A DNA stretch of 64,000 nucleotides. It comes from Octopus vulgaris. Its lineage: Eukaryota. Positions 21,304 through 64,000 of this stretch are shown in pieces; within the stretch, counting starts at the first letter, position 1, and each line of letters begins with the position of its first letter. The translations under genes were made by a program, and so were the position numbers. The stretch is from positions 41,106,001 to 41,170,000 of the forward strand of contig OX597828.1 of assembly GCA_951406725.2 (NCBI GenBank). The letters run 5' to 3'. The notes beneath the pieces were generated by a model. That model ran no database searches. It was given only the letters and a program-made list of their open reading frames with translations, and had not been told where the DNA came from.

Positions 21304-21354
<51 letters not shown>

Positions 21355-31084: not shown

Positions 31085-31587
31085 ACACAAGTTTTCTGCG
31101 AGTAACACACCTTTTGACATGTGCGCCATTTCCATATTATCTCTGTAGCTATCATCTCTGTTTATCTTACACATGCATAAATAAATAAACGGTGGGGTTG
31201 CAGAGTATGTACGCAAACTTTGACCTCTTTTACAAATTTTTTGGCATTCCTTCGGTTTGACTCGACAAAACAATAACAAGACCTCGCTTGTTTCCGTGAC
31301 TAGTCGACAATTCACTTCGGATATCTTCGTGACCTCCGTGACAGCCACTAAAATGGGAGGAGGAGAAGAAAGCTAATGGGTTGTGTGTGCATGCTTGTTC
31401 TCGTCCGTGTGTACGTGTACGTGCTTCTTGTGTGTGTGTGTGTGTGCTTGTTCTTGCCTCTGTGTGTACACACAGTAGCTGTCACTGTCATGGAGGTCAC
31501 GAAAATATCCGAAGTGAATTATTGAGTTGTCATGGAAATAAGTGAGGTCTTCAGTCAAACTGAAGGAATGCCATTTTTTGGGGGGTC

Positions 31588-32646: not shown

Positions 32647-32648
<2 letters not shown>
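31588..32648 (+). mobile_element. RTE-clade LINE 3' end (ORF2 C-terminus, repeat-containing 3' UTR, (GAT)n tail)
   Basis: Encodes RNEASMLRWMCNV...RLRWYGHVARM, then a frameshifted GRGRPRKTW. The UTR ends GGACGTTAAACGATGATGAT. Shorter 3' copies are at ~441-698 (+), 5100-5342 (+), 11449-11870 (-), 12655-12931 (-), 19686-19952 (-), 42995-43367 (+), 53020-53340 (+), 58640-59012 (+) and in both foldback arms. Confidence 0.85.
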
Positions 32649-32678
<30 letters not shown>

Positions 32679-35600: not shown

Positions 35601-35904
35601 TAATTATGTATAAACATTGATTACCTATATAATTATATAAATATTGATTGCGCTTATATATAAACAATGCAATAAAAAACATGTTAGGTGTGTAAACAAT
35701 ATAACAGAAGTTATACATGATTAAAAATATATTAGTTATGTAAAAGACATGTTTAAAAAGAAATCTGCAAAATATCTTAAACAGCTGTGTGGAATTTTGT
35801 TAGTGTCCTCTATTATTGACAGAAGCTGGAGGAACCTTATTGCATATATACACAGCTTCTTTAATGCCCCTGTATATATAGTTCCTATCTTTTAAAAGAC
35901 TTTT

Positions 35905-36307
35905 ATTCTTTATTCTTTTATTCTTTTACATGTTTCAGTCATTTGACTGTGGCCATGCTGGAGCACTGCCTTTAGTTGAGCAAATCGACCCCGGGACTTA
36001 TTCTTTGTAAGCCCAGTACTTATTCTATCGGTCTCTTTTGCCAAACTGCTAAGTGACGGGGATGTAAACACACCAGCATCGGTTGTCAAGCAATGCTAGG
36101 GGTACAAACACAGACACACAAACACATACATACATATACATATATACGACAGGCTTCTTTCAGTTTCCGTCTACCAAATCCACTCACAAGGCATTGGTCG
36201 GCCCGGGGCTATAGCAGAAGACACTTGCCCAAGATGCCACGCAGTGGGACTGAACCCGGAACCATGTGGTTGGTTAGCAAGCTACTTACCACACAGCCAC
36301 TCCTGCA
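35905..36307 (-). mobile_element. tRNA-derived SINE (family 1), young copy
   Basis: Near-identical to the copy at 1697-2100. Confidence 0.85.
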
Positions 36308-38029
36308 CCAACTTGAGAACCTCCAGTTACTGGAAAATACTAGGAGTGAAATTTTTGCTTCATGTCCATATATGACAAAATACCTCTTAGTGAGAATTAA
36401 GGATAAACCACCAGACACATCATAACACATTCCAGTGTTGGCTCATGTAATTGTTGATATTTCCTAAGGCATTAGTTATATTTACTGTTCAGTTAATTAT
36501 CTTCTTTTGATTTCTCTTTGTCTTTTTGTTAATGCATTTGCTCATTCAAACATCGATTGAATCAAATACATACATACAGATAGACAAATGCACGTACAGA
36601 TACTGTTTCTTTTGCTGTCAGGCTTTTTGACATGTCTTGATATATAGGTGCTGACTGTAAAACAAAGGGCATCACCCCCTCTCTCTCTTCCGGAGAGGCA
36701 CTGAGCAGCTTTACGCACATATACACACACGGCAGTAACCTCCGCCTACCGAATTCAATCACAAAGCTTCGGTTGACTCGGGGCTATAGTGGAAGACATC
36801 TGCCCAAAGTGCCACGCAGTGGGACTAAACCCGAAACCATGTAGCTAGGAAGCAAGCTCCCTAACCACACAGCCATGCCCGGCAATCCTTCACAAAAGCT
36901 TCACTGAACTGTTTGTCCAACAGACTCAGGGAATTATAAACTAATTGGACACAAGTCAGGGTTGGCATCAGGAAAGGTATACGACTATAGAAAATCTGCC
37001 TCAGTAAATCCTTATCTGACCTTTATTGTAAAAACATAGAAGTTAAAACGCAGATGGTAATAATGATGATGATAACTAATTTTTTATCTCTAGGTCTGTC
37101 TTTCAGTTGACCATTGTTAGCAGTGCCTCATTTGATAGCAACACAAGGATCTGTAGTGAATGTTTCCAGTATAGACGGTCTAAGAACTGTAAGTCATTTT
37201 CAGAAAAGATTTGTTTTTATAATAACGTTGCTTCCCAAAGCAACTATATAACACTTTTTAGATTTTCCTTCAAGATCAAATTCCAATTTCCATATTAAAA
37301 TTGGAGAAAGTCTATTTTTCTCTTAAATTTTGTAAATTTCAAAGAATTAGTATTTTTATAGCAATGAGTTAATGTTTCTAGCAAAGTCTGTCATGCCACT
37401 TTTACTGTGGGATGTGAGTGAAATTGTAATAGTTTGAAGGAATATTTCAGGATATTGGTATGTAACATAAGGTGTTGAGCTGCCAGAATTGTTAGTACGC
37501 CGGACAAAATGCTGCTAAGCATTTTGTCCATCTTTATGTTCTGGGTTCAAGCATGGAAAAGTAGATGTTGAGAAGATGATGATGTTTCTTGCAAACATTC
37601 CCACTTGTTTTACTTGTGAGTGAAATTGCAATAAGTGCAAGGGTTATCTAGGAAGGGCATCCAGCTGTAAAATCTTCACCAAAACAGGCACAGAAGTCTG
37701 GTGCAGGCTTCTGCCTGTCCAGCTCCTGTCAAACCGTTCCAACCCATGTCAGCATGGAAAGCAGATGTTAAATGATGATGGTGATGATTAATATTGATTT
37801 GGAGCATGAGCACAAGCATTTGCTAGATTAACCTAGTAATAAACACATGCAACAGGCCCTGCATTTTCAGAGCCCACACATTTTCAAGGGCCCTGTGCTA
37901 AATGCCTTATTGTTATAGTCTTTCAATTTTATAGACCTTTGCAGGGTTAGAACTTAGAACAAGGAACAGCCCTGCCACCAACACATTGTCTTTGTTTCAG
38001 GTAAATACTGTTGAGATTGTATATTGAAT

Positions 38030-38375
38030 AGGTTCATGGCTCAGTGGTTAGAGCGTTGAGCTCAGAATCATGAGGTAGAGAGTTTGATTCCCAGACTGGG
38101 CTGTGTGTTGTGTTCTTGAGCAAGACACTTTATTTCACGTTGCTCCAGTTCACTCAGCTGTAGAAATGAGTTGTGACATCACTGGTGCCAAGCTGTATCA
38201 GCCTTTGCCTTTCCCTTGGATAACATCAGTGGCATGGAGAGGAGAGGCTGGTATGCATGTGCGGCAGCTGATCTTCCATAAACAACTTTGCCCAGACTTG
38301 TGCCTCGGAAGGGAACATTCTAGGTTCAGTCCCATGGTCATTCATGACCAAAGGGGTTCTTTACTCTTTACCCTT
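38030..38375 (+). mobile_element. tRNA-derived SINE (second family)
   Basis: TGGCTCAGTGG A box, AGTTTGATTCC B box and TTGTGTTCTTGAGCAAGACACTT core. Relatives at ~148-410 and 728-990. Confidence 0.75.
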
Positions 38376-39635
38376 TTTAGACTTGGAATGGTAGTTTGAT
38401 ACTTTTTATGCTATGATTATACTAAGATTACTTGTAAAGAGTGTATTCTATAATAAATAAATTCTACAATAAGTCTCTTGGTAATGGTAAGACAGTCAGT
38501 CTTACACTGAGAAAGAGCATGAATTTACCTAAGCTGGTTCTCCAAGTATCCATGTTAATTCCTCTTTAGAAACTGCTATAAAAATAGAATAATGTTAGAA
38601 CATTTTAATCTGTCTGTTCAATTCAGTTTATTATTTGTATTTCAGTTTCCTGGAGGTCTTGTTTACAACATGTCTAAAAGTGCTTTGGACCAGTTCACTT
38701 GTACTGTTGCTCTTGGTATGTTGGATTTCGTTTTTCTCCCTTTCAAATGTTTTGCACTTATATTTTTCTCTCAGTTCTGTGTTGTTTAGCCCTTGATCAA
38801 GCAGACCTATGATCAAAAAGGCTCCTGCCGTGACTAATATAACATAACTATGTGTCTCATCTATTTTAAAATGTTGATTTGTGATGATTTGAGGAAGATT
38901 TGACTGTAATTTCTAGCAAATCATGTGACAATATAGAACAGTCATGAGCAACCAATTTTGAGAAGCAGGTTGCATGAAACAGCTTATCATCAGGCAGGCC
39001 ATACTACAAAAAAAATTCAAAGTACATTTCATTGTTGCAGAGGCAGACTGAACCATCGGCCAATCAGGCACTGCCCAAAGGGCCCAGAGCTCTGAGGGGC
39101 TCACACTCTACATGTTAACTCTACTGATATCAATGCTAAGGGGCCCGGTAAACAGTTTTGCCTGAGGACCCTTAATACTCTCAGTCTACCCCTGCATTGA
39201 TGTGACATTCAGAGAGTTCTGCAGATCAGTTTTCAAACCTACACTCAGTCAAATTTTTATTGTCCAGAAACACAACAAGTCTCTTTTGTTCTGAAGTAAC
39301 TAATTACACACCACTTCCATCTAAGTCCAGCCTCACACCCATCTCTCTTTTCGTCATCCCAGCTATGTCTCAAGGCCCTGACCTCTCTGTCCTACATTAG
39401 TTGCATGCAACCTCCAGTTAAGCTCAGTTTACACACCTATCTCCTCTCCTTGCTGTGTCTCAAGGCCTAGACCCTGCACCTTTGTTCCACTGATCCCAAT
39501 CCTTTCTTCCACAGAATATTAATCCCTTGCAATTACAAATACATTTCTTTCAAATTTCCAAGTGTTTAATCAGAATATATCCCTATTGATCTTCCCAGGT
39601 TTGGATCAGTGCATCCTGCCTCCTGCTCTGAATTA

Positions 39636-40604
39636 CAGTGATCCCTCGTTTATCGCAGTAGATTGGTTCTGAGACCGGCCATCCTTCTCTCTCTTTTGGA
39701 GAGGCACTGAGCAGCTATACACACACGGCAGTAACTTCCACCTACCGAATTCAATCACAAAGCTCCGGTCGGCTCAGGGCTATAGTGGAAGACACCTACC
39801 CAAAGTGCCACGCAGTGGGACTGAACCCAAAACTATGTAGCTAGGAAGCAAGCTCCCTAACCACACAGCCATGCCCAATAACTGAATTTCTGCGAAGTAG
39901 GGACACCATATTTACAGTATTTATTTAACGTGTATTTGGACTTTTAAAACCCTCCCTGTACTGTTAACAACCCACCCATTACAGTAATGTATTAATAACA
40001 AGGACAACTGTTAAGCAATAACACTTTAGATTTTAAAAAATAAAGATTGCTACTGTACTCAACACGAAGTTGAAGTAAAATTTGAATGATGGTGATGAAT
40101 TTGCTGCGCAGTAGAAATGATGATGATGAAGCTGATGGCAGTGCCCTTTCCTGGGACATCTCTTCCGAAGGTACAACCGTAGTTGTAGCAGCAGGAACTG
40201 GCTCTTTTTTGCAAGACTGCAAAAACATTGTGATAGGAAGTTGCTGCCGCTGCTTCTTTTTCCGTTCAAATTGCATCTTGTAGGGATTCATGACTTGCAC
40301 AGAATGAACCATATCGTCGTCCCATTCCTGTGACCCCTCTTTCAATTCTTTAGCCAGGTTGCTGAGCTTGGCCAGCTGTTCCAAAGTCAAGCTAGTTTGG
40401 TCAACAACTTCTTCGTTTATTGCTGCATTTCTTCTTCTTCGCTGGCTGACTTTGTCATGTCTTCGAGGTCTGTGTCGGTTAGCGGCTGGGAGTGGCAGTC
40501 TAATAAAGCATCGATGTCTCTAGGTGTTCATACATATATATTTTTAAAATCCACCAAGTTGTGAATCCGTGATAGTTGAACCGCGAAGTAGTGAGGGATC
40601 ACAG
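39636..40604 (-). mobile_element. Tigger/pogo-like deletion derivative with a nested SINE
   Basis: TA|CAGTGATCCCTC ... GAGGGATCACAG|TA. Transposase C-terminal remnants HSQPLTDTDLEDM and KKKQRQQLPITMF. SINE head at ~39680-39876. Confidence 0.75.
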
Positions 40605-43600
40605 TAAGCCATTACAAAACAAAAATTCAGCAAATATGTTATTAGTCACATCAAACAGGCTGTACATTGCTGTCAAACATTGTATATTTTGTTTACTTGA
40701 GAAGAATTACTGAAGTTACTCCATGAAAACAATTATTGTTTTATCTGAATATTCCATGATATACTTAGAATTTTTCACCTTATTCCATGTCTTCCAGAGT
40801 TGGCACCAAAGAAAGTGCGTGTAAACAGTGTCAAGTAAGTCTCATATCTTCACACTAGTCCTGTTAATGTTCAGATATTTATAGCATTATGTAGAATAAG
40901 TAATCATTGTGCCATTATGTAAATGAGTTGTGTTATGTATAATGTTGCTTACATTTTAATAAGTAACCTTTGATACTATCTTTTGGTATTTATGAAGGGA
41001 AACCAGATGAGTCGCTATGTTGAAACTATTCAATTTAATCATTCCTCTAATCTTCCACACAACATTATGGTCTAACCATAGAGCCCAGTTGTACAGCAAG
41101 AATATATGTTTATTAAATATCAATATGCTTTTGTATACATATTTACTTTTAACATATTATTTTCAGTTAGTCAAGTTAAGAGTGAAAATTGTGTATGTGG
41201 AAAGCATTAAAAACGTTAATTAGTAATAAATGTAGTAATGAAAAGAAAAGACAATGATAGTAGTCGCTGATTATTATTGTAATTAGTTCAGTCAGTATGA
41301 GAAACAACTCTTGACATGCTTAAGCCTTATTATGACCTCATCAGTGAAATATAGACTTCACTGTACTTGTTGAAATTGTAGATTTACTCCAAAATGATAG
41401 AACAATCGCAAGAGTGTACTTTGGATAACATGGTAAAATAGACTTGTTTAGCGAATATATTACTTAGAACAACCATCTGCATAAAAAAACTGTAGTTAAT
41501 GTTAAAATATATTTTATTATCTTCACTCTTGACAATTGTTCTTGTATCTTTGGCAGGAATTGTTGGGTGGTATATCATGAAACATCTGTCTTGTGTTCTG
41601 TCCCATTGCGGGAACTAAATAGGATACTGCTTCATTCTAAAACACTTACTTGCTATCGTATCTATCAACTTGGTACCAATTCATAAACAGTGTTGTCTTA
41701 AATAATTACAGGTTAATCCTCGTTATCTGAGATACTCACAAATATTTTTTTGATGATAGGATTTGAACCCTTGATCTTTCTGTTAGTGAACCAATCCCCA
41801 AATAACTTGGCTTCCAGTGACTCTCCAGTGAAGTTTATTGTTCTCAGATCAACTGATATCAGTCTTAGGTCAACCCTGATTAAGTAAACCCATGAACAAA
41901 GGCTCTCTAGCCATGACCATCCACTAAATTTCAGATAAAGTTTATATCACCTTACACTATCCAATATGTTCGTCTCCCTTTTTTTTAAAGGTAGTATTAC
42001 ATGATTTGAGAGATTTGGTTGCTATTTCTGGAAAGGTAAAGGACTATGTAGATCCTCTCTCATAAGTTTGAAGGTTTCTGAAATCATAATGATAATGTGT
42101 GCCATAACCCATTGGGTCAAAGTGGCACAACTGAAAACTTCATTTTTATCTAGAGTATATCACGAACAAGTTAAATTTACCTAGCTCTGTTGTTCTCTGC
42201 TAGGATCCATAAGACCCCTGGGTGTCTGTATGAACCCTGGGTATCTGTAATAGCCCTGGATGTCCAGGTAAGATTTAGTCAGGTGTTAAAATTCATGTGC
42301 AAAAATTGCTTATATTTCCATAATACTCAAAATATTTTAACATTTTTTAAATACATTTTCTAATAATACCTAATTATACTAATACAATAGAATTTTTCAA
42401 ACATTGAATGGCTGTGGAGGGCCACCTGAGTGAAATACATATCAAAGGGGTTAAAAAATGGTTGAGGAATACCGAACTAGCTCATGACCCTCAAAATTAT
42501 AAACCTACAGGTACTGAACTCAGCACGGCAACCTAATGAAACATATACTACTGTCACTGTTAATTACAGCTCCTAACCATGCGATCTATTTCAGCTTTGT
42601 GGAGTGAGCCAACTAGAGTTAAACACGTTGCTGTGCTGATATGCTATAAAACCCTTAGCTATTCACTTGGTCAAGTTGACCATCTGTGACTTTCATAATG
42701 ATATTAATACAGATTATATCTTGCAACCCTCAGCTAAGTTGTTTGTGCTTCTACATGTTATTCCAGTCCTGGGGTTATTGTTACTGACCTACAGAAGAGA
42801 GGAGGCATGAGTGAAGAAGTTTACACTCAGGTAAAGTTAATCATTTCTTGTTTGCTCGAGTTTACTCTTGTATCAACTGGACTATTGAAGACAGTAAGTT
42901 CAAATATTTTTACCTGTGTTTATTACTCTAAATAACTTTTGTTTTTAAAAATTCTTTTAAGTAAGTTATTTAGACAGACAGTTGTATACAGAAGTGCTGA
43001 TCACTTAAAGATGATGGAATTTATGGGAGAGGGAGACCCAGGAAGACACGGAACGAAGTATTGAAGGCTGATCTCAAGATATTGAACCTTGCAAAGGAGA
43101 TGACTAAGGACCGGGGTATCTGGTGCCTTATTGTACTCAAGAAGACTTGTCCACCACAGCAGTATTGATACTGGTGCAGGTGCCACATTAGAAGCATGCA
43201 GTATATTCTATGGAGTGGTTGGCATTAGGAAGGGCATCCAGCTGTAGAAACCATGCCAGAAAAGACAATGGAGGCTGGCGTAGTCCCTGGCCTTACTAGC
43301 TCTGGGTCAAACCGTTCCAACCCATGCCAGCATGGAAAACAGACGTTAAATGATGATGACGATGATGTGTCTCAGCTCTATTCAATATAATTTACTGGGT
43401 GAGCTGCTCCTCATACAACTCTTGAAAATCAGTTATGCAACCCAAAGCATAAATACATTTACTTTCATAGATACAGAGAGGTAACAGTTTAAAAATATTG
43501 TTTGGTTATCATCAACATTGCATTGATTAGATAACTGTTTGTGTTTGTCACATACCTGCGTGTCTGTGTATTGGCTAAATAATTGTGTGCATGTTGTTTG

Positions 43601-47326: not shown

Positions 47327-50300
47327 ATGGACTTGATTAATTTAAGTGGAAAAGTTGCTTTAATTAGCGGTGAGCGATGAGGGAAAATTTCCTCTATTTA
47401 TTATTTTCTTTTTCTTTTCGTTGTTATGAAGAAACGAACAAACACACAACAAAGTATAAAAACTAATTCAACAGTCGCATCTCTCCCTCAAATATCATAC
47501 GAGATAACGAAGAAAAACTACGTAGTTGTTCGCCCTGCTAGAAATAGCAGCCAAATTTCAATTTAATTCAAATCTTACTCTGTTAAAGAAGAAATTATAT
47601 ATAAAGGATAACCTAAGTTTTATCAAATTAGTTTACGAAATTGCATGTTAACCTGATAAACTAGTCGAATGTATACGTAAATAACATAAAACCGGTAAAG
47701 ATTTGCAAGAATTAAATGTTAGTTCTCCGGCAGTTTTCTTTTATGTAAATAAATGGGTACTTGTCTATTGTCGTGGTCCCGGTTTCGCACACGCGAATTC
47801 GCGCGCGCGCGCGCACCAGACGTAGGTACTCGATACTCGAGATCCTACGAGGTGACTTGCGCATGCGCAGTGCAGAATTCGCGCATGCGCGTTACCCCCC
47901 CCCCTAAAAAAAAAGGTGTTGGATTTCACTAAAAATATATATGTGTGTGTGTGTGTGTATATATAACATTTTCAATTTTACACAAAAAAATTACATAGTC
48001 GCTTTCCTCGCGGATTTACAGATAAATGAATTAATTACTATTTTACAGAATAAAATTAATGAATTAATTATATAAATTAAATAATTCTTGAAAATTAATT
48101 AATATTAATAATATTTTTTGAACAAAGTAAATAATTTATAAAACTTGGTTAATAATTTTTTTTACACAAACGCGAACGTATATAATTTGTGAAACTTTTT
48201 TTTTTTTACAGACGTATATAATTTGGTAAACTTAATGAATTAATTTCTTCTCATCATCATCATCGTTTAACGTCCGTTCTCCATGCCAGCATGGGTTGGA
48301 CGGTTCGACCGGGGATCTGGGAAGCCAGAAGGCTGCACCAGACTCCAGTCTTATCTGGCAATGTTTCTACAGCTGGATGCCCTTCCTAACGCCAACCACT
48401 CCGAGAGTGTAGTGGGTGCTTTTTACATGCCACCCGCACAGGTGCCAGGAGAGGCTGGCAACGGCCACGGTCGGATTGGTGCCAGTCGAGGCGGCTCTGG
48501 CATCGGCCACGATTCGGATAGTACTTTTTACGTACCACCAGTCCAGGGGTCCTGGCATTTGCCGGGTGCCACACTTGCCCCAACATGTCTTCGCGAGCAA
48601 AGGGGGTTGGCGTGGGTGCCTGTCGTGGGATGAGGTTCGATATCAACTTCGCTTGCCTCAACAGGTCTTTGTGTATAAATGTATAAATTTTTCGCACTAA
48701 ATTCTTTCCGTAGAATTTATCAAAAAACGCGCAAAATTATTCCGTAGAATTTATCAAATTAAAAAACGCAAAATTAATATATTTTTTGAAATTGCAAATT
48801 ATTTAGAATATAAAACAAATGAAGTTAAATTTTTAAAATAAATGTCATATACTTATACTCTGTAAGGTGCTGTGTTCACACTTCAATTTACTATTTTCTA
48901 GAAATGTTGCTTTTCTAATTGAAACAATTTTTCTCAATCTCCATTTAAAAGTCCATAATGCCTCTTGAGCCATATCAAAATGAACAACTTTGAATTACGC
49001 GGCGGCGGTGGTGGTGGTGGTGGTGTGAGGTTCTAATTTTTTTTCCGATCTCTCTTTGCCCCCTCTTTATCTCAGTTGTTCATTCCGCTAATAATTAGAA
49101 AAATTTTCGCGCCCAATTTTTGTTGTCGCGGGAAAAGATGAACGATTTAAAATAAATATATCTTAATTGTAGTGTGAGAAAGTATATATATTCTGATGAC
49201 AAAATATATTATCTTTCAAAAACATCCCAAATTTATAGACTATATCGTGTAGGTTTAAGAAATATATATATATATAAGAGAATGAAACATCTTTCATCTG
49301 TCTCCCCACCACACCTCCATCTAGGGGGGCAAAGAGAGATCAGAAAAAAATTAGAACCTCACACCACCACCACCACCACCGCCGCGTAATTCAAAGTTGT
49401 TCATTTTGATATGGCTCAAGAGGCATTATGGACTTTTAAATGGGGATTGAGAAAAATTGTTTCAATTAGAAAAGCAACATTTCTAGAAAATAGTAAATTG
49501 AAGTGTGAACACAGCACCTTACAGAGTATAAGTATATGACATTTATTTTAAAAATTTAACTTCATTTGTTTTATATTCTAAATAATTTGCAATTTCAAAA
49601 AATATATTAATTTTGCGTTTTTTAATTTGATAAATTCTACGGAATAATTTTGCGCGTTTTTTGATAAATTCTACGGAAAGAATTTAGTGCGAAAAATTTA
49701 TACATTTATACACAAAGACCTGTTGAGGCAAGCGAAGTTGATATCGAACCTCATCCCACGACAGGCACCCACGCCAACCCCCTTTGCTCGCGAAGACATG
49801 TTGGGGCAAGTGTGGCACCCGGCAAATGCCAGGACCCCTGGACTGGTGGTACGTAAAAAGTACTATCCGAATCGTGGCCGATGCCAGAGCCGCCTCGACT
49901 GGCACCAATCCGACCGTGGCCGTTGCCAGCCTCTCCTGGCACCTGTGCGGGTGGCATGTAAAAAGCACCCACTACACTCTCGGAGTGGTTGGCGTTAGGA
50001 AGGGCATCCAGCTGTAGAAACATTGCCAGATAAGACTGGAGTCTGGTGCAGCCTTCTGGCTTCCCAGATCCCCGGTCGAACCGTCCAACCCATGCTGGCA
50101 TGGAGAACGGACGTTAAACGATGATGATGATGAGAAGAAATTAATTCATTAAGTTTACCAAATTATATACGTCTGTAAAAAAAAAAAAGTTTCACAAATT
50201 ATATACGTTCGCGTTTGTGTAAAAAAAATTATTAACCAAGTTTTATAAATTATTTACTTTGTTCAAAAAATATTATTAATATTAATTAATTTTCAAGAAT

Positions 50301-52790
50301 TATTTAATTTATATAATTAATTCATTAATTTTATTCTGTAAAATAGTAATTAATTCATTTATCTGTAAATCCGCGAGGAAAGCGACTATGTAATTTTTTT
50401 GTGTAAAATTGAAAATGTTATATATACACACACACACACATATATATTTTTAGTGAAATCCAACACCTTTTTTTTTAGGGGGGGGTTAACGCGCATGCGC
50501 GAATTCTGCACTGCGCATGCGCAAGTCACCTCGCAGGATCTCGAGTATCGAGTGCCTATGTCTGGTGCGCGCGCGCGCGCGAATTCGCGTGTGCGAAACC
50601 GGGACCACGACAATAGACAAGTACCAATAAATGTTTATGTCAATTAAAAAATTTGTCAGCAAAATCTTACAAAATGACAAAGTTCTAAAAGACGTACATG
50701 TTTCTGTTATATATGAAAATAAAAGTTTTTTACTCGTCAATTAATTCTAAAAGAAAAGAAAGGTATTATAAGTGACTATTATGATTAATGAAACCGAGTT
50801 ATGATTTTATGGTATATTTTATAAACATTAAACAGAGCACACCTTTGTATTTTTATAAACATTCAGAGGTTGCCGATGTGTAGCGTAGGAGGCCTGTAAT
50901 TATTATGACTAATTAGTGTGATTTAATTACCGTGTTTTATAATGTATTTCATAAACAATAGAAGTCTATACTTGAAAAGTTTTGAGGACTTGCGGGGTGA
51001 GTCTAGCATGTTTATAAGTGGTCCCTTCCGTTTTATAAAGGAATCGTTGTTTGCATATATATATTCTACAAGTAACTTTTGTTTATTTATTTATACACTT
51101 GTAAGATAAACGGAGATAATAAACTACACGAAACTAGTTTAAGGAGATGGTGAAAACGTTCAGAAGTGTTAACTTGTTTTTAAAGATATGAGCAACTGCA
51201 AATTTATGGTCCACCCGGGGTGACAGAGGCTGTGTGTGTGTGTGAGCACGCGTGTATATATATGTATTATTGAAAATTTAGATAGTTTAATAATTGCGTA
51301 TATAACACGTAGGTATATGATACAGGTGATATAATACTAAACCACATTAAAATACAAACCCAATTTGGGTTGAAACCTTGTAGCTTGCTTTAGAAAGGCG
51401 AACAGATTCAATTATTCGGTGAGAACCGATCGTATGGGTGAACATACGTCTGGAAATCTCTGAATATCTGTAGAGTATTTTCATTTATTCTTTTACTTAT
51501 TTCAGTCAGTTGACTGCGGCCATGCTGGAGCACAGTCTTTAAGAGTTTTTTAGTCGAAGAATTCGCCCCCAGGATTTATTCTGTCGGTGGTTTTTTGCCG
51601 AACCTCTAATTTACGGGGACGTAAGCACACCAATATCGGTTGTCAAGCGATGGTTGGGGTGGACACGAACATACACACAAAGACATATACACGTAAATGT
51701 ATATACAGGAGTTGGACAAAATTTCAAACAAGTTTAATTTAATATGGGGCCTTTGGCAGTAATTGCAGCTTGAATTCTACTAGGGGTATGGACTCGTATA
51801 AAGTTTGAATTGTTTCCAAAGGAATTTTTGTCCATTCTTCAGCTAAAACAGTCTCCAGTGGTGGCCAGATAAGACGTTCAACTTCACTAGAATGTTCCTC
51901 GTGCCATTCAGTAACAATTTTAGCTGTGTGAATTGGTGCATTATCATCCTGAAAGGTTGCGATTCCCTCTGGAAACAGTTCTGCAACCATAGTATGAATT
52001 TGATCAGATAAAATGCTTAAATAGTCTTGACTATTAATTCTGCCATGAAGGAAAACCACTGGGACGGCGGATTTCCAAGATACAGCCCCGCCCACCTGAT
52101 CATTACAGATCCTCCTCCATGTTTAACAGTTGGAAGAAGATAGTCTGGGTCAAATGCTTCTTTTGGCTGTCTCCACATGTATACTCAGCCAGTGGTAGGA
52201 AATAAGGTAAAGGATGACTCGTCCGAGAAAATAACATTCTTCCACTGCTCTAGGAACCAATTCTGTAGGTTTTTACTCCACTCTAAATGCTTTGCAACGT
52301 TTGTTTTTGAAAGTAGTGGTTTTCTGATTGCAGCCCTCCCATGAAATCTGGATTTGTGCAGCTCCCAGCGAACAGTTTTTGTGGAAACTGGGTTTTTGAG
52401 ATGGTCATTAAACTCTGCAGTAATTTTGAGAGTTGTACAATTTGCATAAGAGTTCCGGAGTATTGTTTTGACAAGGAGGTTTTTCCTTCTTTCTCAAAGG
52501 CTGTCATTACTTTCGAGACGTTACCAAACATTTTGGCTGTTTTCATTATGCTAGCGCCTGTCGTACAAGCACCAACAATTTGAGCTCTTTGAAAGTCCGA
52601 TAGATCTGTCATTTTAATGAGTTTTAATTACCTTTTTCTGATGATATCTGAAAAGCAACAGCAATTTTAGCAAAACATATTAAGCAACACTAATAATAAA
52701 TCAAAATATATAAAAATAAACAAGCTTTTGATTATTTTATAGATATTTCAAAATTATGATGCTAGGTGTTTCCATTATTTTGTCCAAACC

Positions 52791-52827
<37 letters not shown>

Positions 52828-54301
52828 TATGTGTGTGTGTGTACGATGGGCTTCTTTCAGTTTCCATCCACCAAATCCAGTCAGAAGGTTTTGGTTGCAC
52901 CCAAGGCTATAGTAGAAGACACTTACTCAAGGTGCCACACAGTGTGACTAAATAAAATATTTTGTAGTATAATACAATAAAGTGTATTGCTCAATCCATT
53001 CTCTCCAGTGCTGACCTCTAATTGTGGAGGGAACCTGTGGAAGAGGTAGACCCAGGAAGACATGGGATGACATAGTGAAGCATGATCTTTAAATGTTGCG
53101 TCTCACAGAAGCGATGACAAGTGATCGAGATCTTTAGAGATTTGCTGTCCTTGAGAAGACTTGTCAAACCAAGTGAAATTGTAGTTGTGGCTGCTGCCGA
53201 TGTCACGTAAAAGCACTTGTGCCAGTAACATGTAAAAAGCACCCACTACACTCTTGGAATGGTTGGCATTAGGAAGGGCATCCAGCTGTAGAAACCAAGC
53301 CAAAATCAGACCGGAATCTGGTACAGCTCCCTGGCTTACTATCATCATTATCTTCATTACCATCATCTTCATCATCATCCAAAGTTCACTCCAAGTGTGC
53401 TATCCGTTGCTCTACAGTCTCACATGTCTGCTCTGATGTGCTGTTTGCCGCTGACTGGCCCCCTCGTGCTTTGCTGATGCCGCATGTCCACCGCGGCACT
53501 TCCGGTGGGATCCACAGGCCCCACTTCCGACAGGACATGCCTACTCCCTCACTTCTGATCCTTCCCTACAACACAGCCTGGCTCATAACACCACAGCTAT
53601 GATTAGCATGCTGTATAATCAAAGTAGTAAGGTGAGAAGAAAGAATTATCTTCATCAACGTTCATTGGTAACATTAAACATTTATGCATACATGCATACA
53701 AAAATACCCTGTTGTTGATGTTGAAATTCCAATGAAGGAGCCTTGGATCTAGGTTAGAAACCAGTCCTTTCTCTATTGGCATGTAATCTTGAAATAAACT
53801 GTATCATTACATACAAACATATATATGAGAGAGAGAGAGAGAGAGAGCTAATAATGAGGGATTATCAACCTGGGCAAAATACTTCATAAGGTCTCTGCTG
53901 AGACACCAGGCTAACAATATTGCTTAGATTAGTGAAGGACTCCAGGTATTGTTATGGTAGGGTCCAAGGCTATGGTTCATCACAATTCTATATTGAAAAT
54001 CCATGGATGGGCTCCAGACAAACTGGTTTTTACGCAGAGTGATATATATAAGACAAGTTATAAATAATGGTCATTACATATTTTTCTTTTATTAGAGCAA
54101 ATTTGACTTACAGCTGTTTCGAGTAGTCATTATAAGTATGTTACTGATAGGTTTACTCAATTGTGATCAATAGACTGATTGAGTAAACCTATGAGTACGT
54201 ACCTATAATGATCACTGGAAACAACTGTAAGCCAAATTTACTCTAATAAAGGAAGAATATGTAATTATCATTATTTATAGCTTGTCATATATATATGTAT
54301 G

Positions 54302-54360
<59 letters not shown>

Positions 54361-54717
54361 GTATATGTATATATATGTGTATATGTATATATATGTGTAT
54401 ATGTATATATATGTGTATATGTATACATATGTGTATAAGTATACATATGTGTATATGTATATATATGTATATATATATATGTATGTATATATATATATCT
54501 ATATGTATATATATATATATATATATCTATATATATATGTATACATATGTGTATATGTATATATATATATATGTATACATATGTGTATATGTATATATAT
54601 ATATGTATACATATGTGTATATGTATATATATATATATATGTATACATATGTGTATATGTATATATATATATATGTATACATATGTGTATATGTATATAT
54701 ATATATATATATATATC

Positions 54718-54758
<41 letters not shown>

Positions 54759-56117
54759 ATATATATATGTATATATGTATATATATATATGTATATATAT
54801 GTATGTGTATGTATGTATTTATATATGTATGTATTTATATATGTATGTATGTATGTATTTATATATGTATGTATGTATGTATTTATATATGTATGTAAGT
54901 ATGTATGTATGGTATTGTATTGTATTGTATTGTTAATGTATTGTATTGTATATTCATATGGTACACGTGTGGATTAGAAATATTGAAACCGTCAAAAGAT
55001 GATGGTTGAGAGGTTTCTTATACATGTAAGCCATAACAAGAATAGTCTCTACAATGAGCTGAATTCCAGAACTTTTATAAATACACTCAAAAGTTCTATA
55101 ACATTCCATAAAATCTTTAGGCATGGAAATTAAACTTCTTTCTGTCTGTCAATGCTTATCAAAAACTGGTGTGAACAATGACTGACTGGAAAAAATGTCA
55201 GTAGGTGTTATAATAGAGTTTAGAGATACAGCGAAAAATTAACCCTAGTTAATATTACCAAATACAGTAATATTAATTGCTAGTGGCTATTATCACTGAT
55301 CAACATTATCAAATACGATAATATTGTTCACCAGCTGGTATGGCTTTGAAATTTAGTCTTTACATGTTTGGATTTGGAGAAGACTATCCTGCTACAGTGC
55401 ATCAAATAGTGTGTCAATGTATTAATATGTGTGTGAAATGTAACTCTTTGACTATGAGTATAACATAGTTTAATGTATTATTTCTTTGTTCAGGTGCCAG
55501 TTCCGGTATTGGTGCCGGTACTGCAGTGTTGTTTAGTAAACTTGGTGCAAAGTTGGCTATTACTGGCAGGAAAGAAGACAACTTGAAGAAAACTGCAGAT
55601 GAATGTGAAAAAAATGGTTCTAAGGTAAAGCAGTCACATACGTAGATGCATGTAGGTGTGCAAGCCTGACTTCTGCATGCATATGATTATGCAGATAGAT
55701 ACACTGATACGTTTGTTGTTGTTTTAGTGATATTAAAATCCTAACACAGTACACCACCATGTTAATGTATAGTCTGATTACACACATACATACATACATA
55801 CACATACACTCATACACATACATGCATATGTAGGTAAAAAGAAATACAAACTTGGACCAAAGATTTTGTTTCTTCTCAATATTGTTTCAATCTGTTGAGG
55901 AATATCTTCATCACAAGGCCATCAGCATATACATACATGCACACATATAAACATACATGTATATATATATATGTATATATAAATATCATAATGGCTACCT
56001 CTGATGAGTGCAGGGTTACATAATCGGACTGGTACCTAACACTCTGTTGAACCCCTAGTGCGAAACCAATTGGTAAGATTAGCTGTAATGTATATATAAT
56101 ATGGTACACTTTGATTA

Positions 56118-56160
<43 letters not shown>

Positions 56161-59100
56161 CACATCATATGTATAGACCCACTCAGTCTGATACTATCAT
56201 TGTTGTTCATCTAAGTCAATACTTCTAGGGTAAAATGTAGCTTGTGGGATTTTAACAGAATAGAGTTCTGGGGAGGGAGGGACGAGTTTCCATTAGACTG
56301 AATAGGATTAAGCTAAGGTTAAAATAATTTCCAACAAAATTCATTCATGATATACAACTGATTTAGTCCACCCTAATAGTTGGTTGGTACTTTATTTAAT
56401 GCAGCCCACACCACCACTGCAAGGTGTAGTAAATGACTTCTGTGTGATATGTGCATATATGACAATATATTACAAGGCAAAATGCCTGCCACTCTACTTA
56501 TTAAGCATTCATTGCCTTTCAGTGTTTCTATTCCTGCCTTCCTGGGACTAAACAACTGTTTTTGTTAACCTATGAAAATGAAATTTTTAATACAGACTCA
56601 AACCCCAATAAATGTTAGGGTTCCCCATCTGTGGTCTGTTTAAATTGATGCTATTTAATGAAAACTATTTCTTATTTCAGCCATTAATCGTTGTGGCTGA
56701 CCTTTCAAAGGAAGATGATGTCAAAACTATTATGGAGAAAACCATTTCTCATTTTGGAAAACTAAACATTTTGGTAAATATATTTGTTTCTTAAATCTGC
56801 TGCAATTTCTAGTGTTCCTCGTTTTCACTCCTTATCTTTAACCCTTTCTATACCAACTCACCTGAGACAACTTCTGGTTTTAATTTAGCCCCTTTTATTT
56901 TAAAATATTCACATATAAATTCAAAACTTCCATCCCCAAATTATTGCCTTTTCCTTGTCCCATTTTCCTCATGCCTTATATCCACATTCATCCCTTATAT
57001 TATTAGACAACCCTACTCCCAACTCTGTACGCAACCCACCCTCTCACTTTTTCAGCTTTATCCCTCCCATTTTTTCTTAACCCTGTCACTAATCCCTTCT
57101 TTGTCCCCCATTCCCTGCCACACTCTCTTCTCTTACTTATCACCCCTCATCTCTCCACCTAAAATCATTACCTACTCTCTCTTCTGTACTCCCAAAGTTA
57201 TAGGGGTCAATTTAGGCCCTTAGCCTTGCAAATTATAAGGTAGTCTTCACTCATGCTGATACCATGGAAGAAAGCACCCGGTACATTCTGTAAAGTGATT
57301 GTCATTGGGAAAGACATCCAGCTAAAAAACTGGAGCATGATGTCGTCTTCTGATTGGTCAGCCCCTTTCAAACTATGCCAGCTTGGCAGCCAGACGCTAA
57401 ATGATGATGATGATGATGATGTTCCAGACACCATTTTAATTAATGATAAAATTTTACCTAATCCTTCTAAATTGCTTAAATTTAATTATCAATATTTTGT
57501 TTTCTATTTGTTTCAAAATGAATTTAAATATAGACTGTCTCATTAGAAATATGATTCTGAAAGGATAAACTAACATTACCTTAACTATTTTACCATTTTC
57601 TTGGTGCCATTATTTTGTCCTTACAACCCTTATTTTCCTCCACCATTCTTTGCCTCCACATAATGCCTTATTTCTTGTAGATCTACTTTAGAAACCATAT
57701 TTTTCTTTTGTTTTGCATCAACAGGTGAACTGTGCCGGAATTTTAGCATATGGGAATATTGAAACCACAAGCTTGGAACAGTTTGATGAAATCTTTAACG
57801 TTAATCTGCGGTATGAAATTTTTAATTAGAAGTTAATCATTACAGGTACAGGTGTGGCTGTTTGGTATGAAGCTCCTCTTACTTATCATCCCTTGTCTCT
57901 CCACCTAAAGGCGGTGAGCTGGCAGAAATGTTAGCAGACTGGGCGAAATGCTTAGCGGTATTATTATTTAAGTACCTGATTCTCTCAAGAATCATCATTA
58001 TTATTATATACTAGCAGTATTGTCTGGCGTTGCTCGGGTTTGTAAGGGAAATAACTATATAAGAATTTTTAGAGAGTTACTTCCCTTATATAAAACCGAG
58101 CGAAAAATGGATTAAAAATGGGGAAAAATGATGGTAAATTTTTTTTTAAATCATAAACTCATCGTAGACGTGCGCTAATACCCAGAAGGGCTCAATATGA
58201 ATCACGACTATAAGATACCCGCTTTTAGTTAAACTGCACCGCAAAATGTGGGAGTAGTTAGGAATCTAAATCGGAGTAGACAGACACACACACAACTACA
58301 GTTTTATATATAAAGATATGCACACACACACATATATAAAGTGTATGTGTGTGTGTGTGTATTTGCATGCAACTGAATGTGCATTCTCTTGATGTGTGTA
58401 CACTGATTATAAAGAAAGCCTCACTGTCCATATAAAGGTGTCATTCGTTGGGAGTCCACCATGAAAACATGTCCTTGGTATGTTTGTGCTGATTGTAAAA
58501 TGAAGAGTGTTACTGTTTACATAAGTAGTAACACACTTTGTTGTCTGTCCTCCTGCAAAACCATATCTGAACTGTTTGTTGTTCAACAAACTCAAGGAAT
58601 TATTACTTTGCTTACAAACAGGTAAAAAATTTGCATCAGGAATGTGGCCGATGCCAGCGCCGAAGTCAGCGCCGCCCCGACTGGCTTCTATGCTGGTGAC
58701 ACATAAAAAGCACCATTCGAATGTGGCCGATGCCAGCGCCGCCTTGGCTGGCTTCCGTGCCGGTGGCACGTTAAAAGCTCCAACCAATCGTGGCTGATGC
58801 CAGACCCCCCTGGCACCTGTGCAGGTGGCACGTAAAAAGCACCCACTACACTCGCGGAGCGGTTGGCGTTAGGAAGGGCATCCAGCTGTAGAAACTCTGC
58901 CAGATCAGATTGGAGCCTGGTGCAGCCTTCTGGCTTCCCAGACCCCGGTCGAACCGTCCAACCCATGCTAGCATGGAAAACGGACGTTAAACGATGATGA
59001 TAATGATGATGAATGGCATCAAACTGTAGAATGTCTGCCTTAGCAAAGTCTTACTTCATCCATGCAAGAATCAAAAAAGTAGATGTTAAAACAATGATGG

Positions 59101-62100
59101 TTATAATGATGCTGATGCTGGCTAAATTTCTTCCTCTAGGTCTGTTTATCAGTTGACCATGTTAGCGGTGCCTCATTTGATAACAACCCAAGGATGTATA
59201 GTGAATGTCTCCAGTATATGTGCCCTAAGAGCTGTAAGTCATTTCCAGAATATTTTTTTTTTTTAACTTTTATAATGGTATTGTTTAGAAAAACGATTGT
59301 ATAATACTGTTTAGATTTTCCTTCAAGATTAAATCCCAATTTCCATTTGGGAAAATGGAGAAAGCTTATGTTTCTCTTGAATTATGTAAATTTCAGAAAA
59401 TTACTAAGTCAGAGTGTGAAAGACTGGAAAAATTATTATTTCCTTGCTTGGAAACAGGTAAGGGTTAGCATCAGGAATAACATTCAACTGCAGAAAAATC
59501 TGCCTCAGTAAAACCTGATCTGACATATGCAAGCATGGGAAAGTAGTTTTTGAGATAACAATATAATAATAACGAAATTATTGTATACAGTGCTCAGGTG
59601 CACCAAAACTTGTCAGAAAGTGCATATAAAGTACATGCAGTAATATAGAAATGTCTGGAAAGCGAACAATGTATGAGTCAGATACATGCTTGTGTGTGTA
59701 TGGAGGGGAGAAAATCAAGTGTAGTGTTGGCGAATCTCAGGAAGCATGGAAGTTTTGAAGGATGCAGTGCTCCGACAACTAACAACCGATGCTGGCAGTT
59801 TGTTCCATGCTTCAGCAACTCTCAGCGTGAAAAAATGTTTCCTGAAGTCATGGGAGCTGTGCTGTTTTCTTACTTTGTAAATATGTCTACGGGTGTTAGA
59901 TGGGTGGAGTTTGAAAAGGTGCTCAGAGTTATTGTTTGATGATGATGATGATGATGATGATGTCTCTTGCAAAATCTATAATCCCATTCATACTACTTGT
60001 GAGTGAAACTACAATAAGAGCAAGGGCTATATTAGGATAAAAGCATTTATTTGTATCGTCAAGGCAAGCAATGCTAAATCAGCCCAGTAACAAGAGTGTG
60101 TTACAGGCCCTGTATTTTCAGAGCTTATGCATTTTCAAAGGCTCTGTACTAAATTCCTCCTTATCCTAGTCTTTAACTTTTATGAATTACTGAATGTTTT
60201 AATCTTTTAGTATTCAGATTTCTAAGTCAAATGTAATGCTTATTTACTCACATTATTTTGAATTAATCATGCATTATCTTGTAGCTTCAAGATATTGATA
60301 ATATGATTGTATATTTTTAGAATGGCATTGTAAGATAGGTGTGAGGGGCTGGATCTGGCTTGTTTGAATATAGAACAGGGGAAATATCTTGACCAGATTT
60401 GGCCAATTTTAATGCTAAGGGATTAAGGTTCATTCACAACTCAAAATAATTGAGCTTATCTTCCTTATAAGATCAGATGAATGAAATAAATTTGTTATAA
60501 ACACCACTGTAACAGCAATTGTTAGGATATGTGTTGGAGGTTGGCCTGTTACCAATTGTAACAGGTGTTGGTGTTGCAGATGTGCAAGATGAAAGAAGAA
60601 CAGTGTTCGAGGTTGTAAACAAATATTTATTTACCTTTACATATTGTTATAGCCAAACCACGATGGGTTGATATGTATAACTCGTAAAATATGCAAGGTA
60701 AAGAGAGATATCTCTTTTACTCTTTTCAGTCATTTGACTGTGGCCATGCTGGAGCACCGCCTTTAGTCGAGTACTTATTCTATCGGTCTCTTTTGCTGAA
60801 CTGTTAAGTTACACTGATGTAAACATACCAGCATCGGTTGTCAAGCGATGTTGGTGGTGGGGGGGGGGGCAAACACAGACACAAACATATACACACACAC
60901 ACACATATATATGTATATATATACATACATGTATATGACGGGCTTCTTTCAGTTTCCGCCTACCAAATCCACTCACAAGGCTTTGGTTGGCCCGAGGCTA
61001 TAGTAGAAGACACTTGCCCAAGGTGTCACGCAGTGGGACTAAACCTGGAACCATGTGGTTGGTAAACAAGCTACTTACCACACAGTCACTCCTACGCCTA
61101 TAGATTTTCCTTGTATAGGTGTGTTCGTCTTCTTGTCATTGTGTAGTAGTAAACCACAGATACCGATAGGGTAATGTTGTAGAGAAGAGAAAGTGAAGCT
61201 AGTGCAAGTGAGAGTGATGGGACGAAACAACTGCTTCGCTGGTGGGCTACCATAGTTGTCCCTCTGTGCCTTTTTATTTGATGATGGTGTTTCGTTTGGC
61301 TGATCAGCCAGACTTGGTTCTCATTAACTGACTTTGGCTTATGGAGTTCTTGTATTTATAACTATACAAAACTAGTTAGGAAAACAGATATACTGCAAAG
61401 ACAATGGATATACTTTGTGGGGATCGACTGTTATCTCAATTCCATTCTCCACTGCATACAAGAGGTTAGAAGGGTCAGGTGGCAAAGACATAAATCAGTT
61501 TAGCGAAGCCACGTGTTAAATGTAACTGTTATCACTATTGTTTCTCTGTGAGAAAACTGCTGTTGAAATATTATGGGAAATTTGCCAATTCAGGTTCGAA
61601 TCTACTCTGTGCATAAATGAAGTCACTGCAATACTGTAATGTTAAGCATCCTTCTAATATCAAATTGAGATTTTTACGTGGGTAAGGAACATTTTTATTG
61701 CATACAGGTCTTGGAGGTAAATTATCAATGTTTAGGTAAAAATAATTGTAGAAACATTGTCTTAATTTCAATTACTCTGCACTCTCCATTTTAGCTGATC
61801 TATATAGACTGGTTCTTCAAATAAGCATCTGGGTCCATAGAAATAATTATAATTTTGAACTTTGGTAGAACATACATCTAGTAACCCACAGGTGACTGGC
61901 TTGTATCTTCCATGTGAATTTATGACAAATTCTTCCTATTCAATTCAGTTTACCATTTGTATTTCAGTTCCCTGGAGTTCTAGCATACAATATGTCTAAA
62001 AGTGCTTTGGATCAATTCACCTGTACTGTAGCTCTTGGTATGTTGATTTTTATCCTCATTTCTTTCAAATATTTTTCTCTTTTCTTTTCAGTTCTGTGTT

Positions 62101-62642
62101 GTTTTGACCCTGGTCAAGCAGGCCTATGATTAAGTGTTCAGTTCTGTGTTGTTTTGAGCCTGGTCAAGCAGGCCTATGATTAAGTGTTCAGTTCTGTGTT
62201 GTTTTGAGCCTGGTCAAGCAGGCCTATGATTAAATGTTCAGTTCTGTGTTATTTTGAGCCTGGTTAAGTAGGCCTATGATTAAGTGTTCAGTTCTGTGTT
62301 GTTTTGAGCCTGATCAAGCAGGCCTATGATTAAATGTTCAGTTCTGTGTTATTTTGAGCCTGGTCAAGCAGGCCTATGATTAAGTGTTCAGTTCTGTGTT
62401 GTTTTGAGCCTGGTCAAGCAGGCCTATGATTAAGTGTTCAGTTCTGTGTTGTTTTGAGCCTAGTCAAGCAGGCCTATGATTAAATGCTCAGTTCTGTGTT
62501 GTTTTGACCCTGGTCAAACAGGCCTGTGATTAAGTGTTCCAGCCATTGTTGTATCTTGTTATTTTATGATGTGCTGAGTATTTTCCATCTTTCTCTGTTT
62601 TGCAGAGTTGGCATCGAAGAAAGTGCGTGTAAACAGTGTCAA
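47327..62642 (+). CDS. SDR-C: third SDR paralog, exons 1-7; exons 8-9 expected beyond the window
   Basis: Exons 47327-47369, 55494-55624, 56681-56773, 57725-57810, 59140-59233, 61968-62037, 62606-62642. Lengths and phases match SDR-A and the frame is open: [21 protein letters not shown]...VNCAG...[21 protein letters not shown]...[12 protein letters not shown]. Confidence 0.92.
47756..50625. mobile_element. Foldback-type non-autonomous DNA transposon, probably Merlin/IS1595 superfamily, with ~1.3-kb inverted arms
   Basis: Arms ~47756-49064 and ~49323-50625 are near-perfect reverse complements around a ~260-bp spacer. Termini are GGTACTTGTC...GACAAGTACC. The direct repeat AATAAATG flanks both ends (47748-47755, 50626-50633). 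A peptide remnant [17 protein letters not shown] is present in both arms. Confidence 0.85.
51706..52793 (-). mobile_element. Degraded Tc1-like transposon nested in a SINE microsatellite
   Basis: TA-flanked TIRs CAGGAGTTGGACAAA / TTTGTCCAAACCCTG. Peptides [34 protein letters not shown] and WPP. SINE halves lie at ~51490-51700 and ~52840-52950. Confidence 0.88.
54286..54950. repeat. (TA)n/(TATG)n compound microsatellite
   Basis: Direct inspection. Confidence 0.95.
55991..56086 (+). ncRNA. Candidate type I hammerhead ribozyme of the Penelope-associated minimal type, probably degenerate
   Basis: CTGATGA at 56001, an imperfect stem II closed by G56008-C56061, GAAA at 56062, palindromic stem III ACCAATTGGT, GUA triplet ending at 56075, and an imperfect stem I (ATGGCTACCT / AGATTAGCTGT). 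Confidence 0.5.
58011..58316 (-). mobile_element. Non-autonomous Helitron
   Basis: Minus strand reads A|TCTTTATATATA...CCCGAGCAACGCCAGAC (degenerate subterminal hairpin)...CTAG|T. AT target site, no TSD. Confidence 0.75.
59563..59937 (-). mobile_element. CR1 LINE 3' fragment
   Basis: [28 protein letters not shown] plus the same 3' UTR and tail as the other copies. Confidence 0.8.
62087..62540. repeat. 50-bp minisatellite x9 in SDR-C intron 6
   Basis: Reverse complement of the 13626-14075 unit, with an exact period of 50. Confidence 0.95.
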
Positions 62643-64000
62643 GTAAGTCTCATATCTTCACATTAGTTCTGTTAATGTTCAGATATTTATACCATTATGT
62701 AGAATAAGTAATCCTTGTACCATTATGTAAATGAGTTGTGCCATGTGTAATGTTGCTTAGATTTTAATAAATAGCTTTTTGATGTTATATTTTGGTATTT
62801 ATAAAGGTGAATCCTGATGACTCTTAAGATAAAACTCGTCAGTTTGATTCTTATACCAAGCTATCACAGAGCCATGTGGTCCTAACTGCAGAGTCCAACT
62901 GTAAAGCAAGAATATGTTTATTAAATATCAAAATGAATTACTAAAGCTACCAATATTTTTAATATATTATCTTCTGTTAGTCAAGTTAGTGTTCAAATTT
63001 CTAGGGAACATTATAAATACTAACTAGAAATAAATGTGGTGTAAAAAAATCAATATTAGTCAATAGTTAAATATTATTTTAATTATTTCATTAAGTATGG
63101 GAGACAACTCTTGACATGCTTAAGCCTTATTATATCCTCATCAGTGAAATAGAGACTTCACTGTACTTGTTGAAATTGTAGATTTACACCGAAATGATAG
63201 AACAATCGCAAGATTGTACTTTGGTTAACATGGAAAAATAGACTTGTTTAGAGAATATATTACTTAGAGCAACCATCTGCATAAAAAAACTATAGTTAAT
63301 GTTAAAATATATTTTATTATCTTCACTCTTGACAATTGTTCTTGTATCTTTGGCAGGAATTGTTGGGTGGTATATCAGGAAACATCTATCTTGTGTTCTA
63401 TCCCATTGTGGGAACTAAATAGGATACCGCTTCATTCTAAAACACTTACTTGCTATCGTATCTATCAACTTGGTACCAATTCATAAACAGTGTTGTCTTA
63501 AATAATTACAGGTTAATTATCGTTATCTGAGATACTCAAAAATATTTTTTTGATGATAGGATTTGAACCCTTGATCTTTCTGTTAGTGAACCAATCCCCA
63601 AATAACTTGGCTTCCAGTGACTCTCCAGTGAAGTTTATTGTTCTCAGAGCAACTGATATCAGTCTTAGGTCAACCCTGATTAAGTAAACCCATGAACAAA
63701 GGCTCTCTAGCCATGACCATCCACTAACTTTCAGATAAAGTTTATATCAACCTTCACTATCCAGTATATCGTTCTCCTTTTTAAAGATAGTATTTCATGA
63801 TTTGAGTGATTTGGTTGCTACTTCTAGCAAGTTGAACAACTATGAAGATGCTCTCTCATTAGTTTGAAGGATTCTGAGATCATAGTGATAACTCAAAGTG
63901 GCACAACTGAAGGTTTCATCTTCATATAGAGTATATTTAGAGGAAGTTAGAATGATCTAACCCCCCCACCCTTCCAAATGTTATACTCACAGGAGCTGGG

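Follow-up and report, generated by a model that had tools for sequence, protein, structure and literature searches.

A 64,000-nucleotide stretch of Octopus vulgaris DNA (assembly GCA_951406725.2, contig OX597828.1, positions 41,106,001 to 41,170,000; hereafter the window) carries, in the first intron of an SDR gene, a 2.87-kb foldback element at positions 47756-50625. We found that this element belongs to a young, non-coding family with the ends of a Merlin transposon. Its two inverted arms duplicate, in mirror image, a single chimeric Merlin 3' half. It is likely that the family is moved in trans by the transposase of a related Merlin lineage (family A, below), and that the arms are kept alike by tract-wise gene conversion.

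Self-BLAST aligned the two arms with 1295/1308 identical columns (98.9%) and 7 gap columns, leaving an unpaired spacer of 261 bp between them. The element reads GGTAC...GTACC from end to end and is flanked by an exact 8-bp repeat, AATAAATG; a 9-bp repeat does not fit here. Within the third SDR paralogue in the window it occupies intron 1 (47370-55493), starting 386 bp from the intron's beginning, between an exon starting at 47327 and the glycine-motif (GASSGIG) exon starting at 55494, both mapped from paralogous exons. The near-perfect arms, the spacer, the termini, the 8-bp repeat and the intronic position, all noted in a first-pass annotation made by a model from the letters alone, were borne out. 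The window's SDR exons were not among the matches listed in a genome search with PF00106. Searching the element by tblastn with an intact family A transposase gave a 14-residue remnant and nothing else (E 0.025), Rfam gave a single chance match on a (TG)n tract (score 23.5 bits, cut-off 90) and ARAGORN found no tRNA. Tandem Repeats Finder returned 0 rows at score 40 for the arms, in which short microsatellites alone are visible.

The 27-nt terminus occurs exactly 173 times in the genome (85 forward, 88 reverse) and the reversed-pattern control not once, so the family has at least ~85 copies. A search with the spacer returned 51 matches from 40 scored candidates; as in all our genome searches, the best candidates were scored. 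Paired ends were collected genome-wide and examined for target-site duplications, which were exact in 52/64 paired copies (8 bp in 19, 9 bp in 33; 2 in microsatellites are ambiguous), against 0/4032 mismatched flank pairs used as control. Full-size copies of 2704-3143 bp account for 46/64, and the 18 copies below 2.6 kb include many that have lost most of one arm yet keep ~35-110 bp of its end. Three derivatives are only 82-122 bp long. Between copies, arms diverge by a mean of 0.69%, and many lie 0-1 substitutions from a neighbour, which marks the family as young. Overall, these data uphold the earlier proposal of a recently inserted, non-autonomous Merlin-type element that moves as one unit: the duplications lie at both ends of paired copies, their lengths are of Merlin type, the element keeps no coding open reading frame (ORF), and a transposase with the PF12762 domain and a matching terminus exists. 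The proposed duplication length of 8 bp is correct for the window copy but does not extend to the family, where it is 8 or 9 bp and 9 is commoner. Duplication length also varies by subfamily, with 8 bp in 13/24 exact cases in subfamily T11 and 5/27 in the younger A11. Two independent copies on C27 (L007, 253-1442 and from 1501) stand 58 bp apart with different 9-bp duplications, which suggests a local hop.

We also compared the locus with contigs from four public runs (two under the label organism A and one each under B and C). In runs X2 and X4 a left-flank contig aligns up to 47755, the last base of the duplication, and continues with 68 letters that do not resemble the element. If the allele is empty, they would reach 50700, and the next contig begins at 50671, an overlap of exactly 30. 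In X1 a right-flank contig has 22 unaligned letters before 50626, which together with the duplication make 30 again, and X6, with 5 unaligned letters before 50626, is a weaker case. Judged from these contig ends, the empty-site allele that the first-pass annotation suggested looking for appears to be present in 4/4 runs, and the window insertion appears to be polymorphic, so that carriers and non-carriers can be compared. All four runs also contain pieces of the family. Contigs of X4 and X2 skip 542 bp including the retroposon tail described below (window 48184-48725 / 49657-50198), an arm variant of organisms B and C.

On average, the arms of one copy resemble each other more closely than they resemble those of other copies. 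Arms were aligned for 42 of the 53 copies then in hand, 9 short or rearranged copies having been removed by hand and 2 lacking the inner cut motif; 1020/1415 columns were kept, any column lying 4 or fewer from a gapped one having been masked. The two arms of a copy differ by 0.23%, compared with the 0.69% seen between copies. Among 107 variants, 83 are private to one copy, and 17 of these 83 (14 non-CpG) are present in both arms, against 0.02 expected under independent mutation. Similarly, of the variants carried by exactly two arms, 17/26 fall within one copy, where random re-pairing gave 0.48 on average and at most 7 in 10,000. A 37-bp deletion is found in both arms of L082 and in no other copy, subfamily variants are symmetric in 16/16, 12/12 and 11/11 carriers, and there is no substitution column by which left and right arms could be told apart. 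Private variants are about as frequent in the spacer (rate 0.0015) as in the arms (0.0012), and the arms are therefore not simply conserved. The window copy shares two one-arm variants near the inner end with L033 (element positions 1185 and 1291), and each of the two has its own two-arm variants further out; the arms of the window copy are identical over positions 189-1184, including its two private symmetric changes, and differ outside. Two-arm private variants and symmetric subfamily variants, found together with one-arm variants that are inherited, argue for conversion in tracts rather than wholesale, and such arm-to-arm conversion is the likely process by which the arms stay alike. Under a simple unbiased model, conversion would proceed at ~770-870 times the mutation rate per site, a rough figure that is blind to unsampled parents. 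In L096 two outer markers lie on the opposite arm compared with the related copies L087 and L089, while an inner marker is unchanged, as a crossover between the arms would give. The other subfamily's terminal variants are present on one arm of L159, and L094 has a foreign variant in one of its arms, possibly through conversion between copies.

Identical arms would also be expected if the palindrome were rebuilt from one arm at every transposition, through a hairpin or single-strand intermediate, so that the arms start out identical like long terminal repeats and undergo no later conversion. Many of the youngest copies do have 0-1 substitutions between their arms, and the near-universal symmetry of subfamily variants fits as well. 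We nevertheless regard rebuilding as improbable, because sister copies inherit one-arm variants on the same side (6/9 between-copy doubletons; L031/L033, L036/L037) and because L087, L089 and L096 have one-arm indels in common, which wholesale rebuilding would erase. A still smaller chance attaches to likeness manufactured by assembly or polishing that merged reads of the two arms. A single assembly was analyzed and no listed contig spans the element, but 66 one-arm substitutions and many one-arm indels survive, and over 11-16 loci the symmetric subfamily variants stay together as linked haplotypes. Moreover, merging among ~170 near-identical arms would be expected to pull private alleles toward the family majority rather than to double them. 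Chimeric fold-back reads, named earlier as a reason to reject the element, do not account for it either, since its many genomic copies have different flanks and a common spacer.

Besides conversion, the make-up of the arms points to their origin. A genome search with PF12762 (DDE_Tnp_IS1595) gave at least 150 Merlin transposase matches. One of them, a 294-aa open frame at C11:87.618 Mb (E 1.3e-19), defines family A; its terminus is identical to that of the window element at 26/27 nt, its 3' side shares the outer ~410 bp of the element and its 5' side matches the spacer (Table 1). We take D137, D198 and E239 of its translation to be the DDE motif. The inner arm comes from another Merlin family, B, and consists of a leader, an ORF piece (58/62 nt to L168) and a trailer (117/138 to L168 and 74/76 to L167). 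Ordinary members of family B are ~1.6 kb long (1625 bp in one example), with GGCAC ends, ~55-bp terminal inverted repeats (TIRs), an 8-bp duplication and a 301-aa PF12762 protein. Between the family B and family A parts sits a 424-bp high-copy repeat with a (GAT)n tail, which elsewhere in the window follows an ORF end that presumably belongs with RTE long interspersed nuclear elements (LINEs). In the older relatives L237, L278, L280 and L284 the family B remnant abuts the A-like end directly, without the 424-bp insert, and three of the four keep the family B right TIR. By these nucleotide matches, each arm reads as one chimeric 3' half (family B remnant, retroposon tail, family A 3' end), which gives the element two right ends. 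Since remnant and insert occur in both arms, the arm would have been duplicated or overwritten after their arrival. Both this duplicated chimeric half and the homogenization of arms within copies had been overlooked in the first-pass annotation. Its call for a full-length partner was answered in part: an intact PF12762 ORF with a 26/27-nt terminus was found, and none with both termini among the best candidates scored.

Several observations on Merlin transposases of this genome stand apart from the arms. In L059 (1432-2313) and L065 (1438-2340, minus strand) the N terminus of the transposase carries a CxxC...CxxH/C motif, for which Pfam gave weak zinc-ribbon matches below cut-off (E 0.02-0.15) and not Zn_Tnp_IS1595; according to PMC8101967, Merlins do not have the Zn_Tnp_IS1595 domain. 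At L132 (2347-7720) the ORF of a third Merlin family is interrupted by a family A element, which has a 9-11-bp direct repeat and no left terminus. Merlin-in-Merlin nesting is also seen at L232, where a 122-bp mini copy of the palindromic family (5198-5319) lies inside an older relative.

Excision and insertion of the element would likely be carried out in trans by the family A transposase acting on two identical right ends. We infer this enzyme from its relatives, because no complete family A partner was found: the C11 ORF is intact, C9 has a stop and C14 is frameshifted, each with one terminus in the DNA fetched, and the left terminus of the C11 element was not found in L081 or the next 9.9 kb. 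Mobilization by an enzyme from a different superfamily (hAT, P or Mutator), with the family merely carrying Merlin debris, might be considered on that account, given that no complete autonomous Merlin partner was seen among the candidates scored. Long inverted repeats are, moreover, typical of Mutator. They are also typical of Galileo, of the P superfamily (PMC3573991, in the part accessible). This origin is very unlikely, as PF12762-coding elements at C11, C14 and C9 end on their 3' side in this very terminus, and as mixed 8/9-bp duplications with GG ends define Merlin (PMC8101967). Merlin was the sole superfamily found in the coding remnant and in the relatives, and no search aimed at P transposases was made.

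A number of observations weigh against a Merlin family with converting arms. Among the 64 paired copies, 7 have no duplication and 3 have one with a mismatch. Among the best candidates scored, no member of family A combined an intact ORF with both termini and a duplication. Most private substitutions (66/83) are confined to one arm, and in the older copies L037, L085 and L158 an arm is as close to another copy's arm as to its partner, or closer. Variants are private relative to 42 of ~85 copies, so that a conversion may date to unsampled parents and have taken place elsewhere, and all variants come from one assembly, without spanning reads. Finally, the 36-bp deletion used as a crossover marker is also present in L040 and may recur between short direct repeats.

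The following order of events would account for the element. A family B Merlin would have ended up inside a family A end and lost most of its ORF, after which the retroposon tail inserted. An inverted copy of the whole half would then have replaced the other end, probably when a double-strand break was repaired on the opposite terminal repeat, a route proposed for Galileo. The resulting two-right-end element would have been amplified to at least ~85 copies, whose arms keep recombining, mostly without crossover, with an occasional crossover that inverts the inside or the loss of one arm. Breaks in one arm, left by excision attempts or replication hairpins and mended on the other arm, could produce conversion, crossover and arm loss alike, and the first lengthening of the arms may have been the same repair running beyond the old repeat boundary.

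How does this element compare with known systems? Merlin transposons have GG termini, 8- or 9-bp duplications and described TIRs of 24-462 bp, and are reported to be abundant in an octopus, with 191 sequences (all from PMC8101967). The element agrees with Merlin in its terminal 5'-GG, its 8/9-bp duplication and the DDE_Tnp_IS1595 transposase of its relatives, and differs in a TIR of 1308 bp that lies outside the described range, which is no defining limit. PMC13282606 counts 18 Merlin families altogether; recent activity is reported for 2, with 11 insertions and 28,998 bp. [quoted passage not shown] They differ in superfamily and in the length of the arm, which is 221 bp in Rpmar49, and the octopus arm combines parts of two families with a retroposon. 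Neither main text (PMC4678618, PMC4161770) contains the word 'conversion'. Galileo and other Drosophila foldbacks resemble the element in having kilobase inverted arms. In Galileo the TIRs were lengthened by recruiting internal sequence, and repair on the opposite TIR together with conversion was proposed (PMC3573991, part accessible); Galileo has a P-superfamily transposase and internally repetitive TIRs, whereas the arms of the octopus element are without tandem modules, and conversion was proposed in Galileo but counted from variants in the octopus family. Palindromes of the Y and X chromosomes undergo arm-to-arm conversion in kilobase tracts with rare inversions (PMC3723533, in the part accessible). 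Their arms are fixed, carry genes and exceed 10 kb, whereas the octopus arms are 1.3 kb long, mobile and present at many loci. A classical MITE, being short and present in very high copy number, also differs from this element, which measures 2.7-3.1 kb and has ~85 exact-terminus copies. By its ends, duplication and descent we classify the element as Merlin, not as Galileo/FB or a classical MITE. In the literature searched there was no Merlin or cephalopod foldback and no title on transposon-arm conversion; Repbase, Dfam, Feschotte 2004 and the library of PMC13282606 may hold the family.

Inverted duplication is not confined to this family. Merlin transposase sequence is present in the 52 distinct stretches of 7-10 kb that we examined (54 rows, two overlapping), and 6/52 have an inverted duplication with transposase on both strands, always diverging from the center. 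As 4 of the 6 had been chosen because paired matches were seen, this is no frequency. The 6 loci are C9 (family A, 1.1 kb, 98.5%), C1:70.34 Mb, C14:35.68 Mb, C1:98.63 Mb, C8 and C20 (820 bp, 100%). In C9 (L131 3201-6275, C9:89.443-89.446 Mb) two divergent copies of the family A transposase gene lie in the arms around a central insert that we take to be a Helitron helicase remnant. The other inverted duplications with transposase are at L183 3739-5841 (820-bp arms, 100%), L145 4197-6541, L142 3524-6723, L143 4001-5967 and L173 3714-4454. No target duplication was seen at the ends of L142 and L183, and L145 lies in a TA tract; movement as units is therefore not demonstrated for these foldbacks. 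L144 and L146, fetched for paired matches, proved not to be inverted duplications and were rejected. The three family A ORF loci, >88% identical, have mirrored sequence 5' of the gene and no short left TIR at any: C9 has the 1.1-kb arms with both ORF copies, C14 a 44-bp mirrored stub and C11 a 14-bp stub. The C14 element starts at its stub directly after a 9-11-bp direct repeat of its right flank. From these sequences one may tentatively suggest, with more doubt than confidence, that family A has no ordinary left end, that its autonomous form is a palindrome with two divergent transposase genes and converted arms, and that Merlin here repeatedly becomes a double-right-end palindrome. The left TIRs would also be missing after one-ended insertion, or if a normal left end had simply been deleted. 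If family A were truly palindromic, ~85 replicate mobile palindromes would form a natural panel in which conversion runs several hundred times faster than mutation.

The value of these findings lies in measured concerted evolution and a repeated double-right-end architecture rather than in a single insertion. The TIR length described for Merlin (accessible part of PMC8101967) is nearly tripled, and the construction of a long arm can be followed, both ends being copies of one 3' half that includes insertions younger than the parent. That long TIRs can be made by replacing one end is already on record for mariner and Galileo; how they arise and stay alike is the subject of a proposal for Galileo and is called elusive for mariner (PMC4161770). 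With dozens of young dispersed copies, arm-to-arm conversion can be counted directly, as can tract limits, crossover and arm loss, at a scale far smaller than that of sex-chromosome palindromes, the usual place of such measurement. Because arms are homogenized within copies, arm identity cannot date foldback insertions. The intronic copy would also give the SDR pre-mRNA a near-perfect hairpin of 1.3 kb, which would be a likely target of RNA editing or small-RNA processing.

Table 1. Parts of the foldback element and its immediate surroundings (positions in the window)
Feature	Position	Strand	Basis
Host SDR paralogue, first coding exon	47327..47369	+	paralogous exons
Left target-site duplication AATAAATG	47748..47755	.	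sequence and family comparison
Left arm, mirror of right arm	47756..49063	-	self-BLAST
Outer left arm: Merlin family A 3' end and GGTAC terminus	47756..48252	-	element 1-388/411 against 3' side of C11:87.618 Mb transposase, 83-84% with gaps
424-bp retroposon-tail insertion, (GAT)n end, left copy	48253..48676	-	high-copy repeat; missing in older relatives L237, L278, L280, L284; bounds mirrored from right arm
Merlin family B deleted remnant, left copy	48677..49022	-	bounds mirrored from right arm
Spacer, derived from region 5' of family A transposase gene	49064..49324	.	96%/78 bp to C11; 87%/~210 bp to L171; 84-87% to both C9 arms
Right arm	49325..50625	+	self-BLAST
Merlin family B deleted remnant: 5' leader, 62-bp transposase ORF piece (49450-49511), 3' trailer	49362..49707	+	nucleotide match to L168/L167; tblastn
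424-bp retroposon-tail insertion, right copy	49708..50131	+	comparison with relatives
Merlin family A 3' end and terminus	50132..50625	+	358/439 columns to C11 element, 43 gaps; 85-92% to older relatives from element position 2376
Right target-site duplication AATAAATG	50626..50633	.	sequence and family comparison

Elsewhere in the window, the three SDR paralogues lie at 13281-21906 (-), ~29800-41040 (+) and 47327-62886 (+). The first and third share 974 bp at 95% around late exons (13281-14247 / 61915-62886), more than their other introns, and this likeness suggests conversion between paralogues. A 646-codon open frame with reverse-transcriptase motifs (YADD) at 26408-28345 (+) is presumably a LINE fragment, and we take an exon-like frame at 4754-5095 (+), VPDYYELIANPIDL..., to be bromodomain-like. 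Remnants of what we assume to be Mariner-like and Tc1-like transposases are found at 8870-9217 (+) and 51742-52627 (-), respectively.

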